Shown here: in pieces, positions 10,438 to 31,899 of the stretch
Layout of the letters: every line of letters begins with the position of its first letter
How positions within the stretch are numbered: position 1 is the first letter of the stretch
NCBI RefSeq assembly: GCF_044324785.1
Contig: NZ_CP172128.1
DNA: 64,000 bases
Strand: one strand, 5' to 3'
Source of the DNA: Escherichia coli
GTDB taxonomy: Bacteria > Pseudomonadota > Gammaproteobacteria > Enterobacterales > Enterobacteriaceae
Made by a program: the position numbers and the translations under genes
The notes under the pieces: generated by a model
Told to the model about the DNA's origin: nothing
Databases searched by the model: none
What the model saw: the letters and a program-made list of their open reading frames with translations, nothing else

Positions 10438-10483
10438 AAAATAGTCTTAGCGTGGGATATTTTCCGTTTTCCAAGCGGACCCC

Positions 10484-10680: not shown

Positions 10681-10791
10681 ATTGACACTGTAAATATGGC
10701 ATTGTATAAAACCCCGCGATAATAATGAGTTTCATTTGCATTACTCCCATTTGCTGGTCATCCACTCGCCTGTTTACAAGGATAGCGTTTA

Positions 10792-12827: not shown

Positions 12828-13588
12828 TGAGTATTTGCGCTGAAAATATCACCTGGAAGGCAGGCAAAAAGGTCATCGTCAATAATGTCTCGCTGCGGGT
12901 GCCGCGCGGAGAAACGGTCGGACTGCTGGGGCCCAACGGCTGCGGCAAATCCTCGCTGCTGCGCGTTCTGGCGGGCCTGCGCCGCCCGGATGCAGGTCGC
13001 GTCACCCTCGACGGCCAGGATATCGCCCGGATGGCGAAAAAGCAGCTCGCCCGCCGCGTGGCTTGCGTCGAGCAACACGGCATGACCGAGGCCAATATGC
13101 GGGTGCGCGACGTCGTGCGCCTGGGACGCATTCCCCACCACTCTCCGTTCTCAAACTGGAGCGCTCAGGATGACGAAGCGATTGCCGCCGCGCTGCAGCG
13201 GGTAGCGATGCTGGAGAAAAGCGAACAGGGATGGTTAAGCCTCTCCGGCGGCGAGCGGCAGCGGGTGCATATCGCCCGCGCGCTGGCGCAGAGCCCGAGC
13301 GAAATCCTGCTGGATGAGCCGACCAACCATCTGGATATACACCATCAGATGCAGTTAATGCAGTTGATCAGCGAGCTGCCGGTAACCAGCATTGTGGCCA
13401 TTCACGATCTTAACCATGCCGCGATGTTCTGCGATTCGCTGATCGTGATGCAGCAGGGGCAGATCCTCGCCAGCGGGACGCCGGAGGAGATTTTGTCCGA
13501 AGCGCTGCTGTGGGACGTTTTCCGGGTGAAAACCAAAATCGAGATCTCCCCTTACCACGGCAAAAAGCACATTCATTTCATCGTTTAG
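12824..13588 (+). CDS. ABC transporter ATP-binding protein
   Basis: Walker A GPNGCGKSS, signature LSGGERQR, Walker B LLDEPT. Confidence 0.85.
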   Translation: MMSICAENITWKAGKKVIVNNVSLRVPRGETVGLLGPNGCGKSSLLRVLAGLRRPDAGRVTLDGQDIARMAKKQLARRVACVEQHGMTEANMRVRDVVRLGRIPHHSPFSNWSAQDDEAIAAALQRVAMLEKSEQGWLSLSGGERQRVHIARALAQSPSEILLDEPTNHLDIHHQMQLMQLISELPVTSIVAIHDLNHAAMFCDSLIVMQQGQILASGTPEEILSEALLWDVFRVKTKIEISPYHGKKHIHFIV

Positions 13589-13599
13589 GTTGGGCGGAT

Positions 13600-16307: not shown

Positions 16308-17171
16308 TTATTGTTCAGTTAACTTCATTTCGACAAGTAAAGGTAAATGATCTGAGACAGATGCATATGGCTTACTTTCAGGGGTCGCTCTATCTGACGG
16401 TTTAGGAATATATACATCTTTAATGTCCCATTTTTGAGCATTTGATGTAAGTATATAATCAATTTTCCTGTCTGGATTCCATGATGGTGCCGTGTACTTC
16501 AATTCCTTATCAGTGTCATTGAACCATGCTGTTAAATCCAAGTACTCTGTTGATTGAGGTGGTAAATTAAGATCACCCACTATAATTGGAAGTGCATTTT
16601 TAAACTGCCAAGAAGAGAATTCTGTTTGAAGAGTTCTTACTTGCTCTGCTCGTAATGGCTGCGTAGTGAAGTCCAAATGAGTAGTTACTAACATAACAGG
16701 CGCAGGATAATTAGGGACATCAACTTCTACAGCACAGGCCGCTCTTTGCTCCGCACCTTTGATGTTAGGTAGTTCCATCCTTTTACTCAATTTCAAATCA
16801 TACTTAGACAGTACTGCTGTACCATATTCCCCACCATCATGATCTATAGCCTTGCAGAAGTAATAATTCATTCCCAACTTATTAGCTATATACTCTGCTT
16901 GATTGACTGGGTTAGAACCCTCTTTACTAAAGTTCTTACCAGAACGCCCAGTCATGTTATCAACTTCTTGCAGTCCAATAATATCAACATTCATTTTACG
17001 AATTGCTTCTACAATGGCATCAGTACTCCCCATTCTAGAGGCCATTATGTTATATGACCCAACACGAATACTATCGGTATCTGCTGGACCATCCATGAGG
17101 CGATCAGAAGCTAAAGTTGAAGAGGAAAGAACTATAAACCCTATAACCGCAGCAATGCTTGTTAATTTCAT
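16308..17171 (-). CDS. secreted endonuclease/exonuclease/phosphatase (EEP, DNase I-like fold) family protein
   Basis: 287 aa; N-terminal signal peptide; EEP-type motifs (GLQEV, VGDLN, C-terminal SDHLP); low-GC gene. Confidence 0.6.
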
Positions 17172-17192
17172 TTTTACACCTTGTTATTTTTG

Positions 17193-18523
17193 TAGACTGG
17201 CCCCCTGAATCTCCAGACAACCAATATCACTTAAATAAGTGATAGTCTTAATACTAGTTTTTAGACTAGTCATTGGAGAGCAGATGATTGATGTCTTAGG
17301 ACCGGAGAAACGCAGACGGCGTACTACACAGGAAAAGATCGCTATTGTTCAGCAGAGTTTTGAACCGGGAATGACGGTCTCCCTTGTTGCCCGGCAACAC
17401 GGTGTGGCAGCCAGCCAGTTATTTCTCTGGCGCAAGCAATACCAGGAGGGAAGTCTTACTGCTGTGGCCGCAGGAGAGCAGGTCGTTCCTGCCTCTGAAC
17501 TTGCTGCTGCCATGAAGCAGATTAAAGAACTCCAGCGCCTGCTCGGCAAAAAAACGATGGAAAATGAACTCCTTAAAGAAGCCGTTGAATACGGGCGTGC
17601 AAAAAAGTGGATAGCGCACGCGCCCTTATTGCCCGGGGATGGGGAGTAAGCTTAGTCAGCCGTTGTCTCCGGGTGTCGCGTGCGCAGTTGCACGTAATTC
17701 TCAGACGAACCGATGACTGGAAAGATGGTCGCCGCAGCCGTCACTCAGATGATACGGATGTGCTTCTCCGTATACACCATGTTATCGGAGAGCTGCCCAC
17801 GTATGGTTATCGTCGGGTATGGGCGCTGCTTCGCAGACAGGCCGAACTTGATGGTATGCCTGCGATCAATGCCAAACGTGTTTACCGGATCATGCGCCAG
17901 AATGCGCTGTTGCTTGAGCGAAAAACCGCTGTACCGCCATCGAAACGGGCACATACTGGCAAAGTGGCCGTGAAAGAAAGCAATCAACGATGGTGCTCTG
18001 ACGGGTTCGAGTTCCGCTGTGATAACGGAGAAAAACTGCGAGTCACGTTCGCGCTGGACTGCTGTGACCGTGAGGCACTGCACTGGGCAGTCACTACGGG
18101 CGGCTTCGACAGTGAAACAGTACAGGACGTCATGCTGGGAGCGGTGGAACGCCGCTTCGGCAACGAGCTTCCGGCGTCTCCAGTAGAGTGGCTGACGGAT
18201 AATGGTTCATGCTACCGGGCTAATGAAACACGGCAGTTTGCCCGGATGTTGGGGCTTGAACCGAAGAACACGGCGGTGCGGAGTCCGGAGAGTAACGGCA
18301 TAGCAGAGAGCTTCGTGAAAACGATAAAGCGTGACTACATCAGTATCATGCCTAAACCAGACGGGTTAACGGCAGCAAAGAACCTTGCAGAGGCGTTCGA
18401 GCATTATAACGAATGGCATCCGCATAGTGCACTGGGTTATCGCTCGCCACGGGAATATCTGCGGCAGCAGGCCAGTAATGGGTTAAGTGATAACAGGTGT
18501 CTGGAAATATAGGGGCAAATCCA
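17193..18523 (+). mobile_element. IS2 copy 1 (insC 17284-17649, insD 17607-18512)
   Basis: 1331 bp, IRL TAGACTGGCCCCCTGAATCTCCAGACAACC, right end ...GGGGCAAATCCA; 5-bp target duplication TTTTG on both sides. Confidence 0.9.
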
Positions 18524-18673
18524 TTTTGATAGTAAATTTACATATCAAAATAAATCATAAAATCGCTTTTTTTAGTGATAAAAACCTCAAAAACAAAAAC
18601 AATTAGTGATCAACATCTCATAAGTAGTACATTTATCAACCGTTCCATTAATGTTTCATTCTATCGCGAATTA

Positions 18674-19441
18674 GGTAATGACTCCAACTTATTGATAGTG
18701 TTTTATGTTCAGATAATGCCCGATGACTTTGTCATGCAGCTCCACCGATTTTGAGAACGACAGCGACTTCCGTCCCAGCCGTGCCAGGTGCTGCCTCAGA
18801 TTCAGGTTATGCCGCTCAATTCGCTGCGTATATCGCTTGCTGATTACGTGCAGCTTTCCCTTCAGGCGGGATTCATACAGCGGCCAGCCATCCGTCATCC
18901 ATATCACCACGTCAAAGGGTGACAGCAGGCTCATAAGACGCCCCAGCGTCGCCATAGTGCGTTCACCGAATACGTGCGCAACAACCGTCTTCCGGAGCCT
19001 GTCATACGCGTAAAACAGCCAGCGCTGGCGCGATTTAGCCCCGACATAGCCCCACTGTTCGTCCATTTCCGCGCAGACGATGACGTCACTGCCCGGCTGT
19101 ATGCGCGAGGTTACCGACTGCGGCCTGAGTTTTTTAAGTGACGTAAAATCGTGTTGAGGACAACGCCCATAATGCGGGCTGTTGCCCGGCATCCAACGCC
19201 ATTCATGGCCATATCAATGATTTTCTGGTGCGTACCGGGTTGAGAAGCGGTGTAAGTGAACTGCAGTTGCCATGTTTTACGGCAGTGAGAGCAGAGATAG
19301 CGCTGATGTCCGGCGGTGCTTTTGCCGTTACGCACCACCCCGTCAGTAGCTGAACAGGAGGGACAGCTGATAGAAACAGAAGCCACTGGAGCACCTCAAA
19401 AACACCATCATATACTAAATCAGTAAGTTGGCAGCATCACC
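18674..19441 (-). mobile_element. insAB: IS1 copy 2 (inverted relative to copy 1)
   Basis: 768 bp; insA/insB ORFs identical to copy 1; no flanking duplication. Confidence 0.9.
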
Positions 19442-19616
19442 CAAGGGGCCAGTCTAGCAGATTATGGTGCGCAGTTATACAACAGCAGTAATGAGGAGTC
19501 TACTATTTCTCTTGTTATGCCAGATGCAATTGAATGGAACGGAAAGAATACGCCAAGACGGCAATACATGATAAAATATATTGCCGTATTTAAATATTAA
19601 AATTTATTTTTGTAGA

Positions 19617-20024
19617 TTATCTGAATTTTCGGTGACCTTCAAGTTTTATATCGTTCATTTTATCCAGAGACTCACGTAATGATTCTATATCCCCGTCCTC
19701 AACTTTCTTTTTTGCAATATTGATTTCATGTTGTAGTTTTTTTAACTCTTCCTTATAACTATCTACAGAAACTTTATCATTAACATCTATCTTTTCAGGA
19801 ATAATATTCATAGAAGAATCTACAGATTTATCCATCATTTCAAGAGCATTTAATAGTGATGATTTATCATTGGAAGATTGTAGAATACTCATACTTTTGG
19901 CAAGAGACTGCATGTTTTTATCCAGGCCGGAAGCCAAAGATACGTTGCTGAGAGATAAAAAAATAGCTAGTACAGCACCTGAGAAAAATACCTTTTGTTT
20001 TTTCATTAATATATTCCTGTTCAA
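19617..20024 (-). CDS. cytochrome b562 family protein
   Basis: signal peptide plus four-helix-bundle-sized protein ending ...HRKFR, like the ...HQKYR C-terminus of E. coli cytochrome b562; alternative start at Met7. Confidence 0.55.
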   Translation of the reverse strand: MNRNILMKKQKVFFSGAVLAIFLSLSNVSLASGLDKNMQSLAKSMSILQSSNDKSSLLNALEMMDKSVDSSMNIIPEKIDVNDKVSVDSYKEELKKLQHEINIAKKKVEDGDIESLRESLDKMNDIKLEGHRKFR

Positions 20025-20439: not shown

Positions 20440-21330
20440 TTACGCCATGAATTGCTTATTTCTTAAATACGACATGCACCACAGACAGGCTTTTCCTATA
20501 CCATCGGAACGAGCGGCAAGAAATAACTTGGTGGCGTGTTTATGTTCGCGCATTGGCTTTTTAAGCAATTTACCTCTGTTCAATAACGGCAATGCCAGAT
20601 GATGTGGAATATAACCAATACCGACGTTTTGTTCTATTAAGCTGATTGCCATGGCGAAGTCAGGAACAAAAATAGGTTTTTGTCCTTCCAACAACCAGGC
20701 TTGCATTGGGGGGAAGTTAACGGAGGTATCCCGGATACAAACCGCAGGATAATGACGCAATTCACTGTTTTCTAATGGATTCCGCTTCACTGCCAGTGGA
20801 TGAAGTGGGCTGACGACAAAATCCCATTCTATTTGTCCGACCGGTTCGCTAATGATGCCTTCACTGCTTGGTACTGCATGAGGAGCACCGTAGACCAGAT
20901 CAGCACGTTTACTGTACAGCGCATCCCAGCAGCCGTTGTATACTTCAATATCTACCGTCAGTGTTGTTGATGTGAATTGCCGTTCAAAATCTTGAATAAA
21001 TGACACCAGAAAATCACCAGGTATAATATTGTTCACCGCAATTGTCAGTTCACGCTCAATACCATCGTGAATCAGCACTGTGTTGCGCTTTAATGCATCC
21101 AGATCGCGGAGAATATTTTTGCTATGTTCGATGAAGTAACTCCCCGCCGGAGATAATTCAATATATCGTCCCTTACGAATGAACAGTTCAACGCCCAGGG
21201 TTTCTTCCGCTTTCTTCAGGGTGTAACTGATAGTAGAAGGGACTTTATTTAACTGTTCGGCTGCGGTGGTGATGTTCTGGTGTCTGGCGACCAGATGAAT
21301 AATTCGAATCGTTTCGTCTGAGATGAACAT
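20440..21330 (-). CDS. LysR-family transcriptional regulator
   Basis: 296 aa; N-terminal HTH (IRIIHLVARHQNITTAAEQLNKVPSTISYTLKKAEE) and LysR substrate-binding domain. Confidence 0.8.
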   Translation of the reverse strand: MFISDETIRIIHLVARHQNITTAAEQLNKVPSTISYTLKKAEETLGVELFIRKGRYIELSPAGSYFIEHSKNILRDLDALKRNTVLIHDGIERELTIAVNNIIPGDFLVSFIQDFERQFTSTTLTVDIEVYNGCWDALYSKRADLVYGAPHAVPSSEGIISEPVGQIEWDFVVSPLHPLAVKRNPLENSELRHYPAVCIRDTSVNFPPMQAWLLEGQKPIFVPDFAMAISLIEQNVGIGYIPHHLALPLLNRGKLLKKPMREHKHATKLFLAARSDGIGKACLWCMSYLRNKQFMA

Positions 21331-21407
21331 AAGGCTCCCTGGTCAGTGGTAAAGTGGCTGAATCTCTCCAGATTCAGCCGTAATCATTGCCTGAGTATAC
21401 CCAGGAA

Positions 21408-22628
21408 TTAGCGGTGTTGACTTGCCCGACTGAGAATCGCATACGCGATACATGCCACCAGAATGGAGTCAACTGAAGGGATCGTCGTCAGGGTGAATAA
21501 GCCTTTTACGGTCATAAAGCCAACCGCTGTGCCTGTGATCCATGCAGCGAATGTCAGTACTTTAACCTGTGACTCCTGAGTTAACACCGACTCTTGATAG
21601 CCATTACGGCGATAAAGGAAAAAGTCAGCGATATAAATTCCGGCAACTGGGGGAGTCGCGATACCCAGGAACAGCAGAAACGGAATAAACCACGCCATAA
21701 TATCCATACTGCCTACGATGGCGGAAAGGATACCCAGCGCAACGGTAATCTGCCATTTGGGAAAGCGGCTAAGCAGTGTGGAAACTACCAACGTCCCCTG
21801 GAACATATTGCCCGCATTACCGGTGACGCAGGCGAATATCAGCAACAGTGCTGCAGGCATAACCGCACCGAATACTGCCATAGCATTCAGTAAAGAGCCC
21901 TGGCCGCTAATGGCACTCGGCGTTGCACCCGCCCAGTATAGCAGAGGGTAGGCAACCAGAAACGTCATACCTGCGGCAATCAGAGCATGTTTTCGGTTAT
22001 GTACAAAACTACCGAAGTCGGGAAGTGTAGCAACCAGAACAATAATAGTGCCAACAACGGTGGAAACGGCGACACCTGTACTCATCTCCGCTATCGCTGC
22101 TGGCGCTGATACTTCGGTATGGGTTGCCACATAGAGTATATAACACAGCACCAGTGCGATAACCGGCACGGCGACCTGGGCAACTTTGCCCAGAATGGAA
22201 AAACCAAAGGCCGTAGAGGCGACAAAAATGACACAACCAGCTGCCACTAACAGTGCCAGTGGCGCTTCAATCCCATTCTGCGCCAGTAAGTCATGCACCG
22301 AATGACCAAACATATTAGCGGTAACGGCAATCCAGCCGAACAGACTTATAGCCATCAAAATATTAATGGCGATGGCCCCTTTTTCGCCAAATGAATATTT
22401 CACAATACCGTATGTTGGCAGGCGGGCTTTTTCTCCCACACTAATGGTGATGGCTGAAAGTAAGGTCAGAATGACGCCGCCTAATAGTACGACGCTAATT
22501 AAACTACCACTGGAAAGTTGATTGCCGAGGCTTGAGGATGACAACAGCACAGGTGTGACGGCAATACCCAGCAAAATCATGGTAATACGCAATCCTGATG
22601 CCGTATTCATATTATCTTCTTTACGCAT
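21408..22628 (-). CDS. NCS1-type (cytosine/purine/allantoin-like) permease, putative
   Basis: 406 aa polytopic membrane protein with a transporter-like profile. Confidence 0.5.
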   Translation of the reverse strand: MRKEDNMNTASGLRITMILLGIAVTPVLLSSSSLGNQLSSGSLISVVLLGGVILTLLSAITISVGEKARLPTYGIVKYSFGEKGAIAINILMAISLFGWIAVTANMFGHSVHDLLAQNGIEAPLALLVAAGCVIFVASTAFGFSILGKVAQVAVPVIALVLCYILYVATHTEVSAPAAIAEMSTGVAVSTVVGTIIVLVATLPDFGSFVHNRKHALIAAGMTFLVAYPLLYWAGATPSAISGQGSLLNAMAVFGAVMPAALLLIFACVTGNAGNMFQGTLVVSTLLSRFPKWQITVALGILSAIVGSMDIMAWFIPFLLFLGIATPPVAGIYIADFFLYRRNGYQESVLTQESQVKVLTFAAWITGTAVGFMTVKGLFTLTTIPSVDSILVACIAYAILSRASQHR

Positions 22629-22653
22629 AATATGTTTCCTTTATAAATGCGCG

Positions 22654-23043
22654 TTACATCGTGTGAAAATTCCCGGTGTATTTGCGCCAGCCCCCCAGTG
22701 CTGTAATCTCCTTCTGGCCTTCAGTCAGCCAGCTTTCTGCCAGTACGCCCAGTACTTCGCTACCATCGGCAAGTTTGATTTTTCCAATGGTCAGGCCTTC
22801 GGGTTCGTTCATTAACAGTTCGGCAAAACTGGCCAGAGGCAGTTGCCAGATTTCTACGTCTACGTGTGCTCCTCCTTCATTCACGCGGATCATTCCGGGA
22901 TGACGATCATTAATACTCCATAACCGGTAATGGGCGTCAGTTCGGTCTTCACGGACAAAAATACCGCCCGCTTTTTGCATATTTGGGTTGAGTTCCAGAC
23001 CGCGCATCAGCGTTCCGTTAACGGCTAAAAGTGTTGTAGTCAT
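22654..23043 (-). CDS. AIG2/gamma-glutamylcyclotransferase-like protein
   Basis: 129 aa with GGCT-like fold signature at the N-terminus; family assignment tentative. Confidence 0.4.
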   Translation of the reverse strand: MTTTLLAVNGTLMRGLELNPNMQKAGGIFVREDRTDAHYRLWSINDRHPGMIRVNEGGAHVDVEIWQLPLASFAELLMNEPEGLTIGKIKLADGSEVLGVLAESWLTEGQKEITALGGWRKYTGNFHTM

Positions 23044-23059
23044 TGTGTTCTCCAGAGAA

Positions 23060-24016
23060 TTAAAGGGTTATCCATGTTCCGCTCTGATGTGCCAGGGCTG
23101 CTTTTATGGTTTGCGGTGAAGTAATCAGTCCGCTGGCCTGTTTGCCTTGTTGCTGGCTGGCATTGATGAAATCAATAATGGCTTCCACTTTGGGTTGCAT
23201 ACTGCCGACACCAAACTGACCTTCCTGCAACAGCGTTTGAGCTTCGTAGACGCTGATAGCGTCGAGCCATTGTTGTTGTGGTGTACCAAAGTTAATCGCC
23301 ACTTTTTCTACACCGGTGGGGATCACCAGCAGATCAGCGCCTAACTGACTGGCGAGCAATGCGGAGGCCAGGTCTTTATCGATCACGGCTTCCACACCTT
23401 TCAGTTGTTGCCCGTCTCGCACCACAGGTATACCGCCGCCGCCGCAGGCTATAACCAGATATCCCTGGCGCACAAGGTGAGCGATGGTGTGGTGCTCAAT
23501 AATTTCCAGTGGCGCAGGAGAGGGAACTGTACGCCGCCAACCACGCCCGGCGTCCTCCATCAGCGTCCAGCCGAGTTGTTGTTGGCATTGTTGTGCTGTT
23601 TCTTCATCAAGAAACGCGCCAATCGGTTTACTGGGGCTGGCGAAAGCATCGTCATATGGGCTGACTCGCGTTTGTGTCACCAGGGTAATTACCGGTTTGT
23701 TTATGCCACGGCGAGCCAATTCGTTATGCAGCGCTTTCTGGAACATGTATCCAATGGCGCCTTGGGTATCACCCACGGCGTAATCCAGAGGAACCGGAGA
23801 AACTTCGTTACTGGCAAGTTCAGAGCGGCGCAGAATAAAGCCTACCTGCGGGCCATTACCGTGGGTTAGCACCAGGTCCCATCCGGCTTCAACCATATCA
23901 ACGATATGCTGCACGCTTTCCATTACTGCAACATATTGATCGGGAATACTATTGCGTTTATCGTCCTGAATGAGCGCATTGCCGCCAACCGCGACGACAG
24001 CCAGTGGCTTAACCAT
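23060..24016 (-). CDS. carbamate kinase-like protein (YahI/YbcF-type)
   Basis: AVVAVGGNAL ... THGNGPQVG amino-acid-kinase motifs; start taken at MVKPLAVVAVGG rather than the upstream ORF-track start. Confidence 0.75.
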   Translation of the reverse strand: MVKPLAVVAVGGNALIQDDKRNSIPDQYVAVMESVQHIVDMVEAGWDLVLTHGNGPQVGFILRRSELASNEVSPVPLDYAVGDTQGAIGYMFQKALHNELARRGINKPVITLVTQTRVSPYDDAFASPSKPIGAFLDEETAQQCQQQLGWTLMEDAGRGWRRTVPSPAPLEIIEHHTIAHLVRQGYLVIACGGGGIPVVRDGQQLKGVEAVIDKDLASALLASQLGADLLVIPTGVEKVAINFGTPQQQWLDAISVYEAQTLLQEGQFGVGSMQPKVEAIIDFINASQQQGKQASGLITSPQTIKAALAHQSGTWITL

Positions 24017-25433
24017 GATGGTTCTCCTTTGCGACGATCTCCGCCAGTTCACGTACAGCAGCGACAAAACAGGCCATCGGTGCAGTGGTGATCCCGGCAC
24101 CAATTTGTCCGACTCCCGCTTGTTTGTGGGCGATACCCGTATTGATGACCGGTAAAATGCCACGATCGGTCACTTTACACGCATCAATACCTGCTGCGGT
24201 GGGGGCAAAATTGAGGGCTGGAAGTGTAAATGCGGGGTTACCGCCGAGGGTGATTGCCTGCATCCGACGGCTGTTATTGGTGGCATCGGCAGGGGTGCCT
24301 CCCACAAATTTAACAATCGCCGGAGATGACGCCATCGCGAAGCCACCCACACCTGCGGTTTCAGTAATTGCGCTATCACCCAGGTCAGCAGCGGCGTCGT
24401 CAACGCCAAATCCGGGGAAGAACAGACCTTCAACTGCATTGGCAGGAGCCTGGAACCAGCGATCGCCAGTACCGGAAAGCCGAATACCAAAATTCACCCC
24501 GTTACGCGCCATCACCGTAACCATTGAACTGAACGGTACATTGGCGGCGGCATCCATCATTGCTTTACAGGCAGCCATCGACAAATTGAGGAAGAAGTGA
24601 TCGTTACCTGTGATAAATGCCACGACGCGCTGGATATGTTCCTGTGGAAGAGAGCAGGCCAGCAATGCCGGGAGCAGGCGCTTAATCAGCAAACCGGTAG
24701 CGGCAGCATTGCGGTTATGAACTTCATCCCCCATATGCAGCGCCTGCGCCATTAATGGCTTGAGTTCCAGCTCGCCGTGTTGTGCGATTGCTGCTTTCAT
24801 GGCCGGCGCCAGTTCATCACGCATCCAGGCCAGACGATTGAGAACTTCATCGTTATTGGCACCAAAACGGAGAACCTTACCCAGACCCTCATTGAAATTG
24901 CTAAAAGTACGATGGCCGTTGGTTTTGTTTTCCACCACCCATAATGGCATAGACGGGCTGATAATGCCTGCCATTGGTCCAACCGCGTGATAATGATGAC
25001 AAGGAGCAAGGTCGATTTCGCCTGCGTTTATCTGGTTTTCTGCGTCTTTCTGGCTTGTAGCCCAGCCTTCGTACAGCATGGCACCAATAATCGCCCCTTT
25101 TACCGGACCACACATATCTTCCCAGGCAATCGGTGGACCAGAGTGTAAAATGCGTTTTTGTTCAGCCATTTCGGGGATGGCTTCTTTAGCGAGCATGACA
25201 TCCACCAACACGGGCTGTGCTTCGAGATAACGTGTCATGGCGATTTGGTTGGCACTTTCTACCAGTGGATGGCGTAGTAATGACGCCAGAACCAAACCGG
25301 TGTCAATATCACCTTGTGCTGGCGGCTGCCAGTTGAGGGATATAGCATGCCCTCCTGCATGTTGAATATTGTCAGCAAAACTGTGTAGTCCCGCGTTCAC
25401 GACCTTCAAAGGCTGATTAAATAAGGTATTCAT
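24009..25433 (-). CDS. DUF1116 protein (YahG/YlbE-like)
   Basis: ~474 aa, conserved partner of FdrA-like and DUF2877 proteins; start taken at MNTLFNQPL. Confidence 0.65.
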   Translation of the reverse strand: MNTLFNQPLKVVNAGLHSFADNIQHAGGHAISLNWQPPAQGDIDTGLVLASLLRHPLVESANQIAMTRYLEAQPVLVDVMLAKEAIPEMAEQKRILHSGPPIAWEDMCGPVKGAIIGAMLYEGWATSQKDAENQINAGEIDLAPCHHYHAVGPMAGIISPSMPLWVVENKTNGHRTFSNFNEGLGKVLRFGANNDEVLNRLAWMRDELAPAMKAAIAQHGELELKPLMAQALHMGDEVHNRNAAATGLLIKRLLPALLACSLPQEHIQRVVAFITGNDHFFLNLSMAACKAMMDAAANVPFSSMVTVMARNGVNFGIRLSGTGDRWFQAPANAVEGLFFPGFGVDDAAADLGDSAITETAGVGGFAMASSPAIVKFVGGTPADATNNSRRMQAITLGGNPAFTLPALNFAPTAAGIDACKVTDRGILPVINTGIAHKQAGVGQIGAGITTAPMACFVAAVRELAEIVAKENHHG

Positions 25434-26989
25434 GCATTTAGCTCCTTTTTCTGCAACTGAGTCTGTGCAACGGTGCTGGCCCATAGCGCCGCCTGTGCAT
25501 TGCTGTTGGCAATGATGACGCCTGCATTTTGTAGTGAGCTTATCTGCTGACTGCGTATTTGCGGATCAGCTTCTGTTCCGCAAACGTGGGCAATCAGCAA
25601 CGGTGCATTATTCATGTCGATGTGTGAAAGTTGGTCCAGTAATTCGCTGACAGGCGTAGCGGAGGTGCCATAACCAAGTACAAGGTCGAATAACACAACG
25701 GCAGTATGTGAGTCGTTGAGTTCGTTGAGCAGACGTTGATTGCGCAGAGTCGGGTCGATCATTGGATGCGGTTTGCCACGGGTGAAATCATCGTCCCCCA
25801 TATCAATCAGTGTATGATCTTCACTTTGCCAGATATTTGCCAGAGCACGATTACCCGCAACTGGCGTATTGGAGGCGGCATGGAATCCCTTTTGTTGGCA
25901 GATAAGCTGAGCTTCGTAACAGAAGGTTCCTCCGGCGAAAACACCGCGTATCGCCTGGCGATGGACTGGCAGACTTTGGCAGGCGTTTTGTAACATTGTG
26001 AGATCGTCGCAGGAAACCTCGTTCTCGACAGCCGGAAGTGGCTGATCATTCAGTAACGCCACAGCGATGTCGGCGGCGCTGGCAAGTGTGGTGGCGGCAG
26101 TGATATTGGGACGTGCCAGATCATGCGGATTCGCCCCGAGGAAATTCACCACCACGGGTTTTCCACAAGCCTCGGCGCGCTCCAGAATAGTCCGGGCAAC
26201 GATCGGTGAAGGCGGTTTTGAAATAAGAACAATCACGTGAGTTTCATCGTCTTGTGCCAGCGCATCTAAAGCAAAGAGCATTGATATTCCACCAATCTCT
26301 TCACTGAGATCATGTCCGCCTGTTCCCAACGCCTGAGAAATACCCGCTCCGAGCTGGTCGATTCGGCAAGTCACTTCCTGTAGCCCGGTGCCTGACGCGC
26401 CAATAACACCAATTGCTCCGCGTTTCACCACATTAGCGAAGCCTAACGGAATGCCGTTAACAATGGCGGTTCCACAGTCAGGTCCCATTACGATACGCTG
26501 ACGTTCTCGGGCAAGCGTTTTGATGTATTTTTCCTGCCCGATACTGACGTTATCGCTGAACATCATCACGTTCATTCCGAGGTTTAACGCTTTAATTGCT
26601 TCGGCGGCGGCGTAGTCTCCCGGTACAGAAATGAGTGCCAGGTTGGCTTCGGGTTCAGCTTCCAGTGCCATTTCCAGGCTGACCTTTTCCGGTGATTTAA
26701 TGCCACAATCCGTTTCATCATCGGGTTTGCTGGTCAGACGTTGCTGGGCCAGTAGCAGTGCTTCATTGCAAATATCTTCTTCACCCATGACTGCAATCAC
26801 TAAATCATTGGGACTGGCGTTGATTTCGTTACCCAGACCCGCATCGCGCAATTGCTCGAGATTATTGGGTGTTCCCATGACGACCGAGGCCTGTTGAATA
26901 CCGGGCAACTTGCTGATTTGCGCGGAAATCTGCATCAGAGAAACTGAGTCCTGATAAAGATTACTGAAAACTTTATATTTAACTTTCAT
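25430..26989 (-). CDS. FdrA-like protein (YahF-type, succinyl-CoA-synthetase-alpha-like fold)
   Basis: ~519 aa, CoA-ligase/NAD-binding Rossmann-like N-domain; start taken at MKVKYKVF. Confidence 0.65.
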   Translation of the reverse strand: MKVKYKVFSNLYQDSVSLMQISAQISKLPGIQQASVVMGTPNNLEQLRDAGLGNEINASPNDLVIAVMGEEDICNEALLLAQQRLTSKPDDETDCGIKSPEKVSLEMALEAEPEANLALISVPGDYAAAEAIKALNLGMNVMMFSDNVSIGQEKYIKTLARERQRIVMGPDCGTAIVNGIPLGFANVVKRGAIGVIGASGTGLQEVTCRIDQLGAGISQALGTGGHDLSEEIGGISMLFALDALAQDDETHVIVLISKPPSPIVARTILERAEACGKPVVVNFLGANPHDLARPNITAATTLASAADIAVALLNDQPLPAVENEVSCDDLTMLQNACQSLPVHRQAIRGVFAGGTFCYEAQLICQQKGFHAASNTPVAGNRALANIWQSEDHTLIDMGDDDFTRGKPHPMIDPTLRNQRLLNELNDSHTAVVLFDLVLGYGTSATPVSELLDQLSHIDMNNAPLLIAHVCGTEADPQIRSQQISSLQNAGVIIANSNAQAALWASTVAQTQLQKKELNA

Positions 26990-27083
26990 GCTGTTACGCC
27001 TGTTCCATTCCGCCCGATAGCAAAATTCGGGCAAAGCATCCCCGTGTAGCCCCATAAACGGGCTACGGGAGAAAAGGTTGAAA

Positions 27084-27944
27084 TCAATTCATGGTGTTCA
27101 GGGTTCGAAATCCATGCAGCATTCCTGCAAGGCAATTTACTCCTGATGTTGCGCCAAATTGCATGATCTGTTCTGTACAGGATGCGATTGTCATTGCCGA
27201 TGCGCTCCCAACCAGTTGTGCGAGTAACCGGCAAATCGGTTCTGAAAAATGTCCCTGAAGCGCACGTTGCAGATAATGACGACTTATATCCGTGGTGTTG
27301 TGTGCATGTTGTTCAATTGCCTTCTGCAACCTGTATTGATGATTGGCAAGTGGTGCAGGGAGTTGCCATAACCAGAGGGCTGCCAGATAGCCCAGCAAAT
27401 AGTCATCTCCATCGGGCGTTAAGCCTTTACCAAAGCCGATCAGTTGGGGTACCTGGCGTTCCAGCGCATCTGGATGTTCCATAATATCTAATCCCTGGTG
27501 CGTGAGACTATCCGGCAGGTGCAATGTGCTTTGAACGTTATGCTCCAGACAAAATAAAAGCCGTTGCGATGCTATCGTGGGGTAGTGCTGGAAAACCAAA
27601 GGCAATGCCTCAAGAGTCAGCATTCCCCCCACAAATGGCGACTGCCAGAGCGTTGCGTTATCGAGCGCCACACAAAATCGAGGTGTCCGCAGTAAGCCTG
27701 GGGTTAACTGAATGGGATCTGAATGGGCAATCTCTCTTCGCCAGTCCCAACATTCAGGTAGCCAGACTCTGGCAGCATCAGGGAGATTCAGATACGTTTG
27801 CGCACACAACAGAGTGATGAATGTTCCCGCGTCTGAATACAGATTTACCGCATGTTTAAAAGCGCTATGTAGACGTAAATCTTGCGTTTCATTCTGCGGG
27901 AAAAGATATCCTAACGACGATGCACAAAGCGTAACCTGTACCAT
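27084..27944 (-). CDS. DUF2877 protein (YahE/YlbF-like)
   Basis: 286 aa; conserved third member of the FdrA/DUF1116/DUF2877 trio. Confidence 0.6.
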   Translation of the reverse strand: MVQVTLCASSLGYLFPQNETQDLRLHSAFKHAVNLYSDAGTFITLLCAQTYLNLPDAARVWLPECWDWRREIAHSDPIQLTPGLLRTPRFCVALDNATLWQSPFVGGMLTLEALPLVFQHYPTIASQRLLFCLEHNVQSTLHLPDSLTHQGLDIMEHPDALERQVPQLIGFGKGLTPDGDDYLLGYLAALWLWQLPAPLANHQYRLQKAIEQHAHNTTDISRHYLQRALQGHFSEPICRLLAQLVGSASAMTIASCTEQIMQFGATSGVNCLAGMLHGFRTLNTMN

Positions 27945-27949
27945 CGGCG

Positions 27950-28618
27950 TTAGCCTTCCAGACCTGCAATAATGGCTTTGGAATCAGTAACCCAACCGAA
28001 AATGGCACCTTGTGCTTTGATCATCTCAAGGGCGTATTTCTGGAATTCCGGGAAATAGGAGCCAACGCAATCTTCCGGTATGATGCATTCATAGCCACGG
28101 TCATTTGCTTCACGCACGGTGGTGGTTACGCAAACTTCGGTAGTCACGCCACAAACAATAAGTGTCTTGATACCACGCTTTTGCAAAATCAGATGTAAGT
28201 CGGTTTGATAAAAAGCGCCTTTACCGGGTTTATCAATCACAGGTTCGCCTGTCACTGGATACAGTTCAGGAATGATGTCATGACCTGCCTCACCCCTGAC
28301 CAGAATGCGTCCCATCGGTCCTGGTTCACCAATAAAGGTTTTTCCGCCGCGCGTCAGTTTGGCTGATGGGCAGTCGCTTAAGTCTTCACGATGGCCTTCA
28401 CGGGTATGAATAACCATAATTCCTTTTTGACGTGCGGCTACCAGAACTTCTTTACATGGTGCGATAGCCGTGCGAACCAGTGAAACATCATTACCCAATG
28501 CTTCTCCAAACCCTCCTGCTTCGACAAAATCACGTTGCATGTCTATCATGATCAGTGCCGTTGTGCACGGATCAAAGGGTAATTCAAAGGGTTGAGCCTG
28601 AAAAATGGATATCGTCAT
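27950..28618 (-). CDS. isochorismatase-family cysteine hydrolase
   Basis: ALIMIDMQRDF ... catalytic-Cys region IVCGVTTEVCV typical of isochorismatase/N-carbamoylsarcosine amidase family; start at MTISIF with GGAG RBS. Confidence 0.75.
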   Translation of the reverse strand: MTISIFQAQPFELPFDPCTTALIMIDMQRDFVEAGGFGEALGNDVSLVRTAIAPCKEVLVAARQKGIMVIHTREGHREDLSDCPSAKLTRGGKTFIGEPGPMGRILVRGEAGHDIIPELYPVTGEPVIDKPGKGAFYQTDLHLILQKRGIKTLIVCGVTTEVCVTTTVREANDRGYECIIPEDCVGSYFPEFQKYALEMIKAQGAIFGWVTDSKAIIAGLEG

Positions 28619-28890
28619 GACAAATCTCCAGTATATATTGTTTACTGGTGACGAGTATTCAATATAAAGGTGACCCACAACAGAAAAAAAAGTTGTTTTA
28701 CAGGAGCGAATATTTTTGAGGTGTCTAAATGTTGTTATGAAAAATGTGATTTATATCAATCTATGACATTCATAAACAACTTTTTTCAAATGTTTATTTG
28801 TTTAATATTAAAAAAATTGTCGATATATTGTGATATTAATCATCCTATTTGGCAGGGATAGTGCTGATTTTTAACAAATACCCCTTACAT

Positions 28891-29024
28891 CCGTCCTTCA
28901 ACGGGGATATAAAGCGCTGTTTTCCACCTAACCAGGTGTCTGCTGCTATTCAATGTATTGGCGGATGACGGATGCCGCCCGTTGAAGCAGGAACCCACGT
29001 CCTTAGGGCGTGGAGGATGTCAAA
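28891..29024 (+). repeat. 134-bp direct repeat, copy 2
   Basis: ~97% identical to 20205-20338, same orientation. Confidence 0.7.
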
Positions 29025-29076: not shown

Positions 29077-30560
29077 TCATACGGGAGATGGCGGTTCCCA
29101 GCGTTTATCCTGCTCCGGCGGAGGCAGTGATGCGTCATCGTTGCTGTTCGCCGCGATATAATCGCGGTAGTAGCGTTCACTTCCTTCCCGGTGATGATCC
29201 ACATCCGGTCGTGTAATCCTGTAGTCTTCGTGACCGGTACGGCCTGTCACATTATGCCAGGCAACCATTTCAGCAAAGACCTGGTTAAATTGTTTGTCGT
29301 TTCCTTCTGGTTCAAAGCCCATTCTGGGATCACGCTCAAACAATACAGGTGCAATCAAATCCAGTTTATCTGCCAGCGCATTGCGGTCATGGTGATTACG
29401 GAAAACAACCCTGTCACCATAATCCGTACAGACAAACTCTCCCGTCCGACGGTCACGGAAACGAACACTCCCGTTCTTCTGCAAACGGGCCTCGAGATCA
29501 CCGGTATTACCGTATACCGGCGTTCCGCCCGGTTCACAAAGCACGACACAGCGGTCTGTTGTTGTTGTGCGTGACTTGTCTTTACGGCGATCGCGATAAT
29601 CCCAGCCTCTCAACTGCGATACAGCAGCCCTGTCTCCCTGAGCAGCCTGAATTTCGACCCACTGACGGTAAGAGGGTGGATACCACTTCCCGTCAGCAAT
29701 AAGTTTCTGTCGCTCATCCCTGATGTCTTCTTTCAGCCTGATCAACGCCTGCATTCGCTGAACTTCTGCAATGTGATAATGCAGCTTACGTAATGCCGGA
29801 TCATCGTACTGCGCACGAATGTGTGACTTCCGCAGACGGCATGCCTGATGAATTTCCCGACAACGTTCCCCATTACGCAGATCTGGTTTACGCCATTGTT
29901 CACGCCATGCCAGATAGCGGGCACGCAGGTCAGCACGGGCCTCAGCTCTGGCTTCACGTCGCTGCCGGCGCAGCATTGGGTCACGTTTACTGCTGACCCC
30001 GTACCTGTCACTGACAGCCAGCTCCGGGTTATAGCGACTTTCAGGTTGCACCCTGTCAAACAAATCTGCTGGGGCACTCACAAAAGGTCCGGCCTGTGGC
30101 TCTGCACGCCCCAGAGTCAGATCAGGATGAATGCTGCTGGCCTTCACCGGCGTTTGCTCATGATTAAAGGCATCAACGACAACAAGCCCGTGATGTTGTT
30201 TCTGTAGCATCAGTCCCTGTTGTGCAAACAGCTCATGACAACGCTGCCAGGTAAACTCACCCTGTGTGATCATTTCTTCAATCTGAGGGCTACAATGGCT
30301 GATGCTGTATCCCCACAGACTTTCTTTATCAGAAAACAGTTCGCGTTTGATAGCCCCCTGCGGCCCCGTGCCTGTACGCATACGGTGCCATTCTTTATCG
30401 GTCGCAGGACAGCTCTCCATACGACGACCACGGAAGCGTTCTGTTGGCGTAACCTGGCGGAAAATATCTGTTGGTACAGGCTGCCAGCCACCATCGAGTT
30501 GATTCACATTGTCGAGCGTCAGCAGTGACCATACGCTGTCAGCACGAACGGGAGTCTGGT
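29077..30560 (-). pseudogene. NikB-like MOBP relaxase, C-terminal ~490 codons only
   Basis: N-terminal part of the translation (..TPVRADSVWSL..QPVPTDIF..) aligns with the C-terminal region of the nikB at the window end; relaxase catalytic domain absent. Confidence 0.55.
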
Positions 30561-30613
30561 TATGATATTTTTCGGATCCCGGTGAAAAAAGAGAGAAACA
30601 TGCAGATACCATG

Positions 30614-30732
30614 CATATCCATATGTTTGGCATCTGCATATGACAGGCATACGCATATCTCACACATCTGCATATCTATAACATATACATATGTATCACA
30701 TCTGCATATACTAAACATATATAAAAGCCGTC
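30614..30732. repeat. seven tandem 17-bp direct repeats, core CAT(C/A)NNCATAT
   Basis: core motif starts at 30614, 30631, 30648, 30665, 30682, 30699, 30716: exact 17-bp period; directly upstream of vagC. Confidence 0.7.
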
Positions 30733-30748: not shown

Positions 30749-30979
30749 ATGAGAACCGTATCTATTTTCAAAAATGGCAATAACCGCGCGATCCGTCTGC
30801 CCCGCGATCTGGATTTTGAGGGGGTGAGTGAGCTGGAGATTGTACGGGAAGGGGACAGAATCATTCTGCGTCCCCTCCGCCCGAGCTGGAGCTCATTCCT
30901 GGAGCTAGAAAAGGCCGATCCGGGCTTTATGACGGAACGCGAGGACGTTGTCTGCGACGAAGGACGATTTAACCTGTGA
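30749..30979 (+). CDS. vagC: VagC/VapB antitoxin (AbrB/SpoVT domain)
   Basis: 76 aa, MRTVSIFKNGNNRAIRLPRDL.. swapped-hairpin antitoxin; start/stop overlap with PIN toxin. Confidence 0.85.
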   Translation: MRTVSIFKNGNNRAIRLPRDLDFEGVSELEIVREGDRIILRPLRPSWSSFLELEKADPGFMTEREDVVCDEGRFNL

Positions 30980-31392
30980 ACAAGATCTATATGCTCGACA
31001 CGAACATCTGCTCGTTCATCATGCGCGAGCAGCCTGAAGCAGTGCTTAAGAATCTGGAGCAGGCGGTGCTGCGCGGTCACCGTATAGTGGTCTCGGCCAT
31101 CACCTACTCCGAGATGCGCTTCGGCGCCACCGGTCCAAAGGCATCGCCACGCCACGTGCAGCTGGTTGACGCGTTCTGCGCCCGTCTCGATGCCATCCTG
31201 CCCTGGGATCGCGCTGCGGTGGATGCAACCACGGAGGTTAAGGTGGCGCTGCGCCTCGCCGGCACGCCGATCGGTCCGAACGACACGGCGATCGCCGGGC
31301 ACGCCATCGCCACCGGGGCAATACTGGTGACGAATAATGTGAGAGAGTTTGAGCGGGTGCCTGGACTGGTACTGGAAGACTGGGCAGGATAA
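30976..31392 (+). CDS. vagD: VagD/VapC PIN-domain toxin
   Basis: 138 aa, PIN-domain acidic residues (MLDTNICSF.., ..VTNN..). Confidence 0.85.
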   Translation: MNKIYMLDTNICSFIMREQPEAVLKNLEQAVLRGHRIVVSAITYSEMRFGATGPKASPRHVQLVDAFCARLDAILPWDRAAVDATTEVKVALRLAGTPIGPNDTAIAGHAIATGAILVTNNVREFERVPGLVLEDWAG

Positions 31393-31395
31393 AGG

Positions 31396-31430
31396 AGTAA
31401 GGCCGCCCCCGACGGCCTTACCACTATTTT
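31396..31430 (+). terminator. rho-independent terminator-like hairpin after vagD
   Basis: GTAAGGCCG-CCCCCGAC-GGCCTTAC followed by T-rich tract. Confidence 0.5.
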
Positions 31431-31899
31431 GCGATGTCAGTCGTATTCATTTTCAGCGTTAAAAAAGGGCTCTATACGAATACGTGTATCAGCGTGAGTA
31501 AGTTTCGGCGGCCTGATAAATCCACTATTTCCCAGCTGGACAGCCAGTTGCCACATGGCATCACTACGGGGAATGCTACGATAATTCCTCTCTGTGAGGA
31601 AAGCGGCATAATCCTGATGCCCGAACGTCATGAGCACCTGTCTGATGAACTTGTGTGACCCACCGTCATTTTTAAGACATTGCATCAGCAGTGCCTGCTT
31701 CTGCCGGTCATCGGTTATTTTGGTGGAGAACCTTATCAGGGCTTGCTGGCTGAGAAGTGGTGCCTCAGAGAGCAGGGCTTCATCTTTTTCCCAGAGCCAG
31801 TTCAGGATACTGATACAGACTTCATCTGCAATCTTATCGCCATTCAGAATTAAACGAGTAATCCCCAGGTCAAACTGGTCATCAGCAAATAAAACAAGC

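Follow-up and report, generated by a model that had tools for sequence, protein, structure and literature searches.

What compound is handled by a cluster of eight co-oriented genes that sits on an Escherichia coli plasmid, recurs on many E. coli chromosomes, and places an isochorismatase-family hydrolase next to proteins of the DUF2877, FdrA and DUF1116 families and a carbamate kinase? We analysed this cluster within a 64,000-nucleotide stretch of E. coli contig NZ_CP172128.1 (assembly GCF_044324785.1), hereafter the window, where it occupies positions 20440-28618 on the minus strand. An initial annotation of the window had proposed a sequence of import, amide cleavage, carbamoyl transfer and ATP formation from carbamoyl phosphate, which homology and conserved synteny support, and had held that the substrate cannot be deduced from sequence. 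The latter view appears too pessimistic, since the hydrolase carries the full residue signature of the triuret hydrolase TrtA and scores as TrtA does against the model of the biuret hydrolase BiuH. With moderate confidence, we propose that the cluster is a self-contained catabolic operon for triuret (carbonyldiurea), or for a very similar linear polyureide, coupled to ATP formation. The proposal is built from family memberships, operon-like gene packing, linkage across phyla, and the absence of BiuH and of an AtzF amidase, from which we infer the substrates and reactions. The eight genes, all intact open reading frames (ORFs), are as follows:

27950..28618, minus strand: TrtA-type (triuret hydrolase-like) cysteine hydrolase of the isochorismatase family, 222 amino acids
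27084..27944, minus strand: AllH-like subunit (DUF2877), 286 amino acids
25430..26989, minus strand: AllF/FdrA-like subunit (succinyl-CoA-synthetase-alpha-like), 519 amino acids
24009..25433, minus strand: AllG-like subunit (DUF1116), 474 amino acids
23060..24016, minus strand: carbamate kinase, 318 amino acids
22654..23043, minus strand: stand-alone allophanate-hydrolase C-terminal domain protein (AH_C), ortholog of c4763, 129 amino acids
21408..22631, minus strand: NCS1-family permease (CodB-like), 407 amino acids
20440..21330, minus strand: LysR-type regulator, 296 amino acids

The NCBI annotation pipeline PGAP reports the same eight genes on pLH10-b-1-A, an E. coli plasmid that is 100% identical, and the gene order and coordinates given by the initial annotation, seven co-oriented genes followed by a LysR gene on the same strand, are exact. 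Its family calls largely hold as well. The hydrolase is an isochorismatase-type cysteine hydrolase, which can be narrowed further to the TrtA type; profile searches place the DUF2877, FdrA and DUF1116 proteins and the carbamate kinase where it had placed them; the permease is NCS1-like at the family level and CodB-like (TIGR00800, 5e-16); and the regulator is a LysR protein of the PunR/AllS type. The label 'AIG2-like' for the 129-residue protein was imprecise, since its match to Pfam GGACT is marginal (1e-3) and the protein is a stand-alone AH_C. From the hydrolase to the LysR gene, the intergenic distances are 5, 94, -4, -8, 16, 22 and 77 nt, the allG-like start overlapping the allF-like stop by 4 nt and the carbamate kinase start overlapping the allG-like stop by 8 nt. 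A sequence scan found no excess of terminator-like sites within the cluster over shuffled expectation. Judged by gene packing and by a conserved upstream region described below, the eight genes are operon-like.

The hydrolase bears directly on the substrate. Its best matches in the PDB are the Herbaspirillum TrtA structures 6XIX, 6XJ4 and 6XJE (269 bits), followed by the biuret hydrolases of Rhizobium and Rhodococcus (231-241 bits, with Rhizobium BiuH at 241) and by RutB (109 bits), and in a MAFFT alignment it is 57.7% identical to TrtA and 53.5% identical to BiuH. Herbaspirillum TrtA has been demonstrated to deamidate triuret to 1-carboxybiuret (PMC7948467), and the hallmark of the enzyme is a kcat/KM of about 6e5 M-1 s-1 on triuret with a roughly 1e4-fold lower value on biuret. 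The published residue sets of TrtA comprise the catalytic triad D24/K129/C162, the ligand contacts F29, E72, K132 and Q202, and six consensus positions (F35, N41, A134, E160, Y187 and I205) that read Y, Y, S, D, T and V in BiuH (PMC7948467). When the window hydrolase was aligned with the 6XIX sequence by MAFFT, with residue roles taken from that study, it agreed with TrtA at the triad Asp24-Lys129-Cys162, at the cis-peptide pair V157-T158, and at the four substrate-coordinating residues, and it read FNAEYI at the six discriminating positions, where Rhizobium BiuH reads YYSDTV. All 15 catalytic, binding and discriminator positions are thus identical to TrtA. The signature is equally stable in the 80 homologs introduced below, each of which keeps 14-15 of the 15 positions; every homolog with the discriminators aligned reads FNAEYI or FNSEYI, one truncated ORF lacking the first two of them. 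Two second-copy hydrolases found in the same loci read YYSDTV, as BiuH does; one of them was scored and, at 410 bits, passes the BiuH cut-off, so the signature discriminates TrtA from BiuH in independent data. Against the NCBIfam BiuH model itself (NF050097, cut-off 370 bits), the window hydrolase fails with 278.5 bits and Herbaspirillum TrtA with 256.3 bits, whereas Rhizobium BiuH scores 410.5 bits; in falling below the cut-off as authentic TrtA does, the window protein behaves like TrtA and not like BiuH. It also fails the RutB model TIGR03614, with 115.8 bits against a cut-off of 378. By its residues and scores, the hydrolase is a TrtA-type enzyme.

The company that the hydrolase gene keeps is conserved far beyond E. 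coli. A scan of one genome per GTDB species returned 319 relatives of the hydrolase, and the closest 80 of these (67-94% identity) were taken with 10-kb flanks, their neighbours being counted by tblastn and by clustering of all ORFs in the 80 loci. AllF-like genes adjoin the hydrolase gene in 71 of the 80 loci, AllG-like genes in 69, carbamate kinase in 63, AllH-like genes in 56, stand-alone AH_C in 55, an NCS1 permease in 49 and a LysR gene in 48; for carbamate kinase, AllH-like genes, AH_C and the permease, the counts within the 71 loci with AllF/AllG-like genes are likewise 63, 56, 55 and 49. The 71 loci with AllF/AllG-like genes within 10 kb usually keep the gene order of the window and come from Enterobacterales, Vibrionaceae, Pasteurellaceae (Avibacterium), Shewanella, Burkholderiaceae, Neisseriales, Xanthomonadales (Dyella), Alphaproteobacteria (Pseudovibrio and marine metagenome-assembled genomes, MAGs), mycobacteria, Chloroflexi and a Desulfotomaculum MAG. 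Since the flanking genes are unrelated between genera, with, for example, the aga operon adjoining the module in Photobacterium profundum, the module appears to travel as a unit.

What these loci lack is also informative. No second, BiuH-type hydrolase occurs within the 10-kb flanks of the 71 AllF/AllG-containing loci, only three of which hold a full-length AtzF, and neither a second hydrolase nor an amidase is present in the operon or in the region around it in the window. Two of the nine loci without AllF/AllG-like genes are short contigs, and the others include canonical triuret/biuret loci, which carry a second hydrolase with the BiuH signature, full-length AtzF (823 bits) and urea-type ABC transporters, along with close homologs of the window hydrolase (67-71% identity). 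It is therefore plausible, from this pattern of gene content, that the AllHFG-carbamate kinase module stands in for the hydrolytic BiuH/AtzF route. Two marine alphaproteobacterial MAG loci (L068 and L071) have, in this order, AtzF, a TrtA-like hydrolase, a permease, AllH, AllF, AllG and carbamate kinase with no BiuH, and this presence of AtzF without BiuH would fit allophanate as a product of the AllHFG-like complex. The allantoin and ureidoglycolate (all) genes were not found in the window region or in the syntenic loci.

What reaction could the three-subunit transferase perform? The DUF2877 protein matches Pfam AllH (PF11392, 3e-26), the DUF1116 protein matches Pfam AllG (PF06545, 8.6e-99), and the AllF/FdrA-like protein passes the NCBIfam FdrA model (NF004760, 491 bits against a cut-off of 433) and contains Pfam CoA_binding and Ligase_CoA domains. 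The last of these aligns with the FdrA structure 3DMY at 288 bits, both having the motif PHPMIDPTLRN, and the AllG-like protein aligns at 406 bits with 3CLQ, a solved, uncharacterised structural-genomics relative that could be used for modelling the transferase active site; a fold search with the AllH-like subunit gave no meaningful structural relative. The carbamate kinase exceeds the equivalog cut-off of TIGR00746 (arcC; 368.1 against 358.25 bits) and resembles the solved carbamate kinases 1E19 and 1B7B along its full length (265-270 bits over residues 6-303). The initial annotation had noted that the corresponding K-12 proteins are linked to oxamate carbamoyltransferase and carbamate kinase activities. 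The literature agrees: AllFGH was shown in 2024 to be an oxamic transcarbamylase catalysing oxalurate + inorganic phosphate (Pi) <-> oxamate + carbamoyl phosphate (PMC11326118), and YbcF/AllK has been established as a carbamate kinase with a catabolic role (PMC9843812). The yahEFG-yahI genes, as it had also stated, are without an assigned substrate, their names still being only 'putative'.

The window proteins are relatives of these systems at a distance. The AllF-like protein is 40% identical to K-12 FdrA and 42% to YahF, the AllG-like protein 46-48% to YlbE and YahG, and the DUF2877 subunit about 22-25% to YahE and YlbF. In outgroup-rooted neighbour-joining trees, which were built without bootstrap and are indicative only, the TrtA-linked AllF, AllG and carbamate kinase proteins group apart from K-12 AllFGK and YahFGI (35-52% identity); only the proteins of one MAG and of an additional, yah-type gene set of Avibacterium depart from this and group with Yah. 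By these identities and trees, the window proteins are not orthologs of K-12 AllF, AllG and AllH, and since the TrtA-linked proteins form a group of their own, a new substrate specificity is plausible. Enzymes of the succinyl-CoA-synthetase class form acyl phosphates by phosphorolysis, so that for an AllF subunit resembling the alpha chain of that enzyme, phosphorolysis yielding carbamoyl phosphate would be natural chemistry. The Avibacterium gallinarum locus (L015) has two FdrA/DUF1116 sets side by side, at 2699-8759 and 8865-14009, one of the yah type with an ankyrin YahD-like protein and a permease of about 530 amino acids and the other linked to TrtA; carbamate kinase was not found in this stretch up to position 14022.

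The 129-residue protein adds a further link to polyureide chemistry. It matches Pfam AH_C (PF21986, 4.7e-42) from position 2 to 122 of the 123-position model, aligns with the C-domain of KlAH (1.7e-11), and covers only positions 440-562 of the allophanate hydrolase model TIGR02713; it contains no amidase-signature domain, and the operon contains no amidase gene. With 264 bits and 11 differences in 129 residues relative to 5C5Z, the crystal structure of c4763 from uropathogenic E. coli (a link made via PMC7558591), it is the plasmid allele or ortholog of that protein. A secondary source states that c4763 replaces urease in urea breakdown (PMC7558591); nothing in our analysis supports this. Public databases mostly misname stand-alone AH_C proteins 'glutamyl-tRNA amidotransferase'. 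Allophanate hydrolase C-domains convert N-carboxycarbamate to carbamate and CO2, and the domain family is said, with reference to Fan et al. 2013, to act on an N-carboxy compound. In a comparison of 57 stand-alone sequences with only 6 full-length ones, the His of the G-A-H motif in full-length C-domains is replaced in G-T-L in at least 90% of the stand-alone proteins, which have invariant residues of their own (R-E-D, Y-R, D-R-H-P and E-P-x-G-L).

In five mycobacterial species, carbamate kinase and AH_C form a single ORF of 454-470 amino acids (L063:13626-14990, L064:12651-14063, L067:13569-14981, L072:13623-14990 and L077:13682-15049), and in the two fusions checked with NCBIfam models the kinase spans residues 3-312 and the allophanate-hydrolase C-part residues 319-448. 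As gene architecture, this natural fusion is a tie between the functions of the two proteins. Together with the constant place of the AH_C gene after the kinase gene, it leads us to argue that AH_C acts with the transferase/kinase pair, probably on its co-product or product stream. The presence of AH_C also points to allophanate-type, that is polyureide, chemistry.

Since the hydrolase is of the TrtA type and the 129-residue protein is an AH_C, we propose triuret as the substrate and the following course for its breakdown. The NCS1 permease, by its position in the operon, would import triuret, and the TrtA-type hydrolase, by its conserved active-site and specificity residues, would release one terminal amide as NH3 to leave 1-carboxybiuret. 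The AllHFG-like complex would then catalyse carboxybiuret + Pi -> carbamoyl phosphate + allophanate and probably also allophanate + Pi -> carbamoyl phosphate + carbamate, by analogy with oxalurate + Pi -> carbamoyl phosphate + oxamate and in keeping with the conserved synteny and the lack of BiuH and AtzF amidase. Carbamate kinase, whose family assignment is firm, would use carbamoyl phosphate and ADP to form ATP and carbamate, the latter decaying to NH3 and CO2. AH_C may handle some N-carboxylated intermediate or product beside the kinase, and LysR would activate the operon from the conserved upstream region. Each triuret would thus give at most 4 NH3 and 2 ATP with no need for urease, which would suit urease-negative hosts such as E. 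coli. We hold the specific passage from carboxybiuret through allophanate to carbamate more tentatively than the triuret assignment as a whole. It has a chemical rationale: carboxybiuret (-OOC-NH-CO-NH-CO-NH2) and allophanate (-OOC-NH-CO-NH2) are, like oxalurate (-OOC-CO-NH-CO-NH2), anionic N-acylureas, the first being one atom longer and the second one atom shorter. If the two-step phosphorolysis is right, BiuH, TrtB and the AtzF amidase would be dispensable in loci with AllF/AllG-like genes; AtzF could have a place in the marine loci, since the first phosphorolysis would yield allophanate; and urease-negative hosts could carry the module. E. coli and several other carriers are, as far as is known, urease-negative.

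Comparison with known systems shows where the proposed pathway would stand. The cluster and K-12 allFGHK (fdrA-ylbE-ylbF-ybcF) both unite the three protein families and a carbamate kinase in one operon, and the presumed chemistry is the same, namely N-acylurea phosphorolysis to carbamoyl phosphate and substrate-level ATP synthesis. However, the proteins are 40-48% identical and form a separate clade, the order is H-F-G-K rather than F-G-H-K, and the linked genes are not allantoin genes and instead encode a TrtA-type hydrolase, AH_C, and a permease and regulator of the cluster's own; for these reasons the substrate is probably not oxalurate. The yahEFG-yahI set of K-12 is a slightly nearer paralog (42-49% identity for the AllF-like, AllG-like and carbamate kinase proteins) with the same order of DUF2877, FdrA-like, DUF1116 and carbamate kinase genes and an adjoining LysR gene, but it has the ankyrin protein YahD and the metal amidohydrolase YahJ and lacks TrtA, AH_C and the NCS1 permease. 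With the TrtA, TrtB, BiuH and AtzF pathway of Herbaspirillum and Rhizobium, the cluster shares a TrtA-type first enzyme, an AH_C domain and probably the substrate and the end products NH3 and CO2. Since an AllHFG-like transferase and carbamate kinase take the place of BiuH, TrtB and the AtzF amidase, the route here would be phosphorolytic and ATP-yielding, not purely hydrolytic. Relative to the C-domain of AtzF and DUR1,2 allophanate hydrolases, the 129-residue protein matches AH_C over its whole length but occurs without an amidase domain, has Leu for His, and is coupled or fused to carbamate kinase. The arginine deiminase pathway (ArcA, catabolic ornithine transcarbamylase (OTCase) and ArcC) follows the same logic, in which phosphorolysis of a ureido compound supplies the carbamoyl phosphate for ATP formation by carbamate kinase, although it uses another substrate and the aspartate transcarbamylase (ATCase)/OTCase fold, whereas here the transferase would consist of a succinyl-CoA-synthetase-alpha-like AllF with AllG and AllH. 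In comammox Nitrospira and ammonia-oxidising archaea, a polyureide hydrolase likewise adjoins allFGH-like genes and carbamate kinase, sometimes with a codB-like permease (PMC12625717); those contigs often carry atzF or biuH too, come from a different ecology, and have been described with no coupling between the two parts (PMC12625717).

Who carries the cluster, and where, bears on what it may be for. Its plasmid location, as initially annotated, is borne out by 82 PLSDB plasmids with at least 95% identity (E. coli accounts for 78 and Klebsiella for 4; every one is typed as conjugative, and pAPEC-O2-ColV is among them) and by a relaxase remnant, vapBC and insertion sequence (IS) elements at the flanks in the window. 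The cluster is not, however, specific to plasmids, being mostly chromosomal in E. coli and a known part of the tkt1 island. It is present in 1566 of 5426 complete E. coli genomes (~29%), with 1521 chromosomal places at ~94.5% identity to the plasmid allele and with ATCC 25922 and E. coli B among the carriers. In B2 extraintestinal pathogenic E. coli (ExPEC), metE and ysgA flank the 16-kb tkt1 island, and the chromosomal copy makes up its right-hand part, in agreement with the NRG857c annotation; the papers on the island leave the function open or guess at pyrimidine use (PMC3349570, PMC12928451). Because the plasmid allele is ~5.5% divergent from this common chromosomal allele, the plasmid copy appears to have been acquired independently and not to have been copied recently from a B2 chromosome; some genomes hold up to three copies. 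The ratio of nonsynonymous to synonymous substitution rates (dN/dS) between the plasmid allele and a chromosomal allele is 0.07-0.17 in the six genes from the hydrolase to AH_C, which indicates purifying selection.

The host was poultry (chicken, duck or turkey) for 30 of the 46 listed carrier plasmids with a named host, and other carriers include Avibacterium gallinarum, Thorsellia anophelis, Edwardsiella hoshinae and insect-associated Serratia and Rahnella. There is thus a weak hint that carriers are enriched for inhabitants of urate-rich hosts or sites (poultry plasmids, B2 ExPEC and insect associates). Triuret reportedly arises when peroxynitrite oxidises urate; it is present in human urine and also as an impurity in urea fertiliser (PMC7948467). 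In a transposon-sequencing (Tn-seq) study of the adherent-invasive E. coli (AIEC) strain NRG857c, the carbamate kinase NRG857_19070 was an in vivo gut fitness gene (PMC8016931), and it is most probably the kinase of this cluster, being by gene content the only carbamate kinase in the relevant 45 kb. Two other reports were set aside: the carbamate kinase of a Nissle/BL21 paper is a different enzyme, arcC of the arginine deiminase pathway, and the arcC (RS17080) of a paper on avian pathogenic E. coli (APEC) could not be tied to the cluster. It is conceivable, though we would not call it probable, that the AllHFG-like enzyme is a new carboxybiuret and/or allophanate phosphorylase in a urease-independent, ATP-yielding triuret pathway, and that this pathway is a niche-fitness trait, drawing nitrogen and energy from oxidised urate, of ExPEC, APEC, AIEC and other animal-associated bacteria. 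The inflamed or urate-rich sites concerned could be the bird gut and cloaca, urine and the insect gut.

Several points weigh against the triuret proposal and its ecological extension, and some of them lead directly to rival explanations. The hydrolase is only 58% identical to characterised TrtA, compared with 54% to BiuH, and specificity in this family is set by second-shell residues such that single mutations do not interconvert the enzymes (PMC7948467), so a related but different substrate is possible. Carboxybiuret decarboxylates spontaneously with a half-life of ~20 min (PMC7948467), so that biuret may be the true substrate of the transferase, with urea left as a product. The simplest route makes no N-carboxycarbamate, which leaves the role of AH_C unexplained, and AH_C is without the His conserved in the six full-length C-domains compared, a residue we take to be catalytic. 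Similar co-locations in nitrifier MAGs have been read as two separate pathways (PMC12625717). As for ecology, NRG857_19070 was assigned to the cluster by an estimate of locus-tag offset only, and both sampling and the hitch-hiking of the cluster on ColV/ColBM virulence plasmids confound its links to hosts and niches. Among the rivals, the decay of carboxybiuret gives rise to a urea-forming route, in which carboxybiuret becomes biuret, spontaneously or through AH_C, and the AllHFG-like complex turns biuret + Pi into carbamoyl phosphate + urea, so that a host lacking urease would recover only about half of the nitrogen, and one ATP. The spontaneous step is documented (PMC7948467), and urea-type ABC transporter genes lie near the module in several carriers, such as Rahnella. 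AH_C is integral to the module, and its domain family, as noted, reportedly acts on an N-carboxy compound. On the other side, carboxybiuret decarboxylation is known from TrtB, a member of another family (AtzH/HpxZ), on which ground we rejected AH_C as a TrtB. Urea would moreover be a dead end for carriers taken to be urease-negative, biuret lacks the negative charge of the known substrate oxalurate, and the marine loci with full AtzF fit allophanate, not urea, as the intermediate. We regard this route as unlikely.

Slightly more weight, though still little, is due to the idea that the substrate is another ureido compound or N-acylurea, such as a different oxidation product of urate or purines or the amide of a heterocycle, and that the hydrolase merely resembles TrtA, which corresponds to the open reading of the initial annotation. 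The modest identity to TrtA, the kinship of both the permease (NCS1) and the regulator (a PunR/AllS-like LysR) with nucleobase and allantoin systems, and the existence of AllFGH paralogs without known specificities all leave room for it, but it has to contend with agreement at 15 of 15 TrtA positions here and 14-15 in the 80 homologs, with homologs at 67-71% identity in canonical triuret/biuret loci that contain BiuH and AtzF, and with an AH_C that points to allophanate-type chemistry. Could the cluster instead hold two unrelated neighbours, a triuret/biuret hydrolase and a second oxalurate pathway of oxamic transcarbamylase and carbamate kinase? This has been published for comammox and archaeal ammonia-oxidiser contigs (PMC12625717), and the three subunits match Pfam or NCBIfam models named after AllF, AllG and AllH. 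Yet the parts lie together in 71 of the 80 species, which span several phyla, and their genes overlap or nearly abut and keep a fixed order; no allB, allC, allD or allE gene goes with the module; neither BiuH nor the AtzF amidase is present, although a hydrolytic route standing alone would require them; and the proteins are not orthologs of K-12 AllFGK, while carrier E. coli already have allFGHK. A second oxalurate pathway was accordingly judged improbable, given the non-orthologous proteins, the missing all genes and the linkage to TrtA across phyla. Pyrimidine nitrogen scavenging of the Rut kind, with a CodB-like importer, a RutB-like amidohydrolase and carbamate handling, was proposed for the chromosomal copy (GR 29) in the BEN2908 genome paper, where the best BLAST matches were RutB at 32% and CodB at 26.5% (PMC12928451). 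We reject it and give it hardly any credence: the hydrolase scores 116 bits on the RutB model against a cut-off of 378 and 241-269 bits against TrtA/BiuH structures, the permease falls far below the cut-off of the CodB model, and neither RutA, RutC-G nor any other pyrimidine-ring-opening enzyme lies in the module.

Parts of this picture were already known: the cluster had been described within the tkt1 island, AllFGH and TrtA had been characterised as enzymes, the structure of c4763 had been solved, and biuH/trtA-like genes had been seen beside allFGHK in nitrifier MAGs. Within the library searched, full-text queries turned up no report of a functional connection between a TrtA-type hydrolase and a transferase of the AllFGH type, and none that assigns triuret to the E. 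coli cluster; in the public protein names of the module, triuret appears nowhere, the terms used being cysteine hydrolase, DUF2877, DUF1116, FdrA and 'glutamyl-tRNA amidotransferase'. What we add is a well-motivated proposal of phosphorolytic, ATP-yielding polyureide catabolism built on a new paralog of oxamic transcarbamylase. If it is true, several consequences would follow: (i) a y-ome-type module found in ~29% of complete E. coli genomes, on ColV/ColBM-type APEC plasmids and in many phyla would gain a function and a substrate; (ii) the AllFGH transcarbamylase class would gain a second physiological substrate; (iii) there would be an energy-conserving alternative to the hydrolytic triuret/biuret/allophanate route; (iv) scavenging of oxidised urate would be a reason for these genes to reside on an ExPEC island and on poultry virulence plasmids; and (v) the orphan crystal structure of c4763, 5C5Z, would be placed in context. 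The proposal would overturn no paradigm; it would offer a directly testable function for common, pathogen-associated 'unknown' genes and for a newly discovered enzyme class. It can be tested with common laboratory strains, and triuret is commercially obtainable or easily synthesised.

How might the operon be regulated and supplied? The LysR protein has 52 LysR-family NCBIfam matches, the best being PunR (276 bits, cut-off 345), with AllS at 205 bits (cut-off 372), both below cut-off. Its gene adjoins the module in 47 of the 71 syntenic loci, lying downstream in Enterobacterales and Burkholderiales and upstream in Vibrionaceae. The region ahead of the hydrolase gene is the following:

28619..28900, minus strand: predicted upstream regulatory region (promoter and probable LysR-type operator), from a cross-genus alignment and an inverted repeat

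About 280 nt of this AT-rich sequence align across E. coli, Citrobacter, Buttiauxella, Edwardsiella and Enterobacter, with conserved blocks that comprise two TCACA motifs, CTGAATACTCA and an AGGAGA ribosome-binding site, and the plasmid copy contains a perfect 7-bp inverted repeat, ATAAACA-N12-TGTTTAT. A simple sigma-70 scan of the operon strand upstream of the first gene found nothing above chance, and overall fewer sites than in shuffled sequence. The region fits an activator-dependent promoter that the adjacent LysR protein would serve. By comparison, in K-12 both ArcA and AllS, itself of the LysR type, activate the allF operon (PMC12535856). The permease fails the NCBIfam cytosine permease model NF008241 (148 bits against a cut-off of 326), so its similarity is at the family level only. 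A multi-pass membrane protein of about 530 amino acids adjoins TrtA-like genes in 22 of the 80 loci, with and without AllF/AllG-like genes (for example L060:7136-8731 on the minus strand, L068:10728-12272 and L066:10723-12306), and matches nothing in Pfam or NCBIfam. This protein and the NCS1 permease are nearly exclusive of each other, 48 loci having NCS1 only, 16 the ~530-residue protein only and one both, and it is a candidate for a new family of triuret/biuret transporters.

In the window, the cluster is enclosed between a relaxase remnant with vapBC at one end and, at the other, cytochrome b562 with IS elements. The remnant is a 528-residue ORF:

29077..30663, minus strand: truncated MobP-type relaxase remnant, context only, from a sub-cut-off match to NCBIfam TraI_MobP_relax

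It scores 172 bits on that model (cut-off 250) over positions 170-496 of 502, which corresponds to the C-terminal two-thirds of a MobP-type TraI, and no coding sequence is annotated there in the identical plasmid. It probably marks an old recombination junction beside the cluster. Positions 30976-33166 contain a further IS3-family element and vapC, directly upstream of which the annotation of the identical plasmid places vapB, and positions 16308-20024 contain a secreted protein of the endonuclease/exonuclease/phosphatase family, an IS3-family element, IS1 and the plasmid-borne cytochrome b562. Taken in full, the window finds its best match in a plasmid of a hen isolate. Its GC content is a mosaic, at ~0.63 for 12-14 kb, 0.38 for 38-40 kb, 0.56-0.62 for 48-58 kb and 0.45-0.52 in the cluster, which suggests that the window is a patchwork of separately acquired segments.

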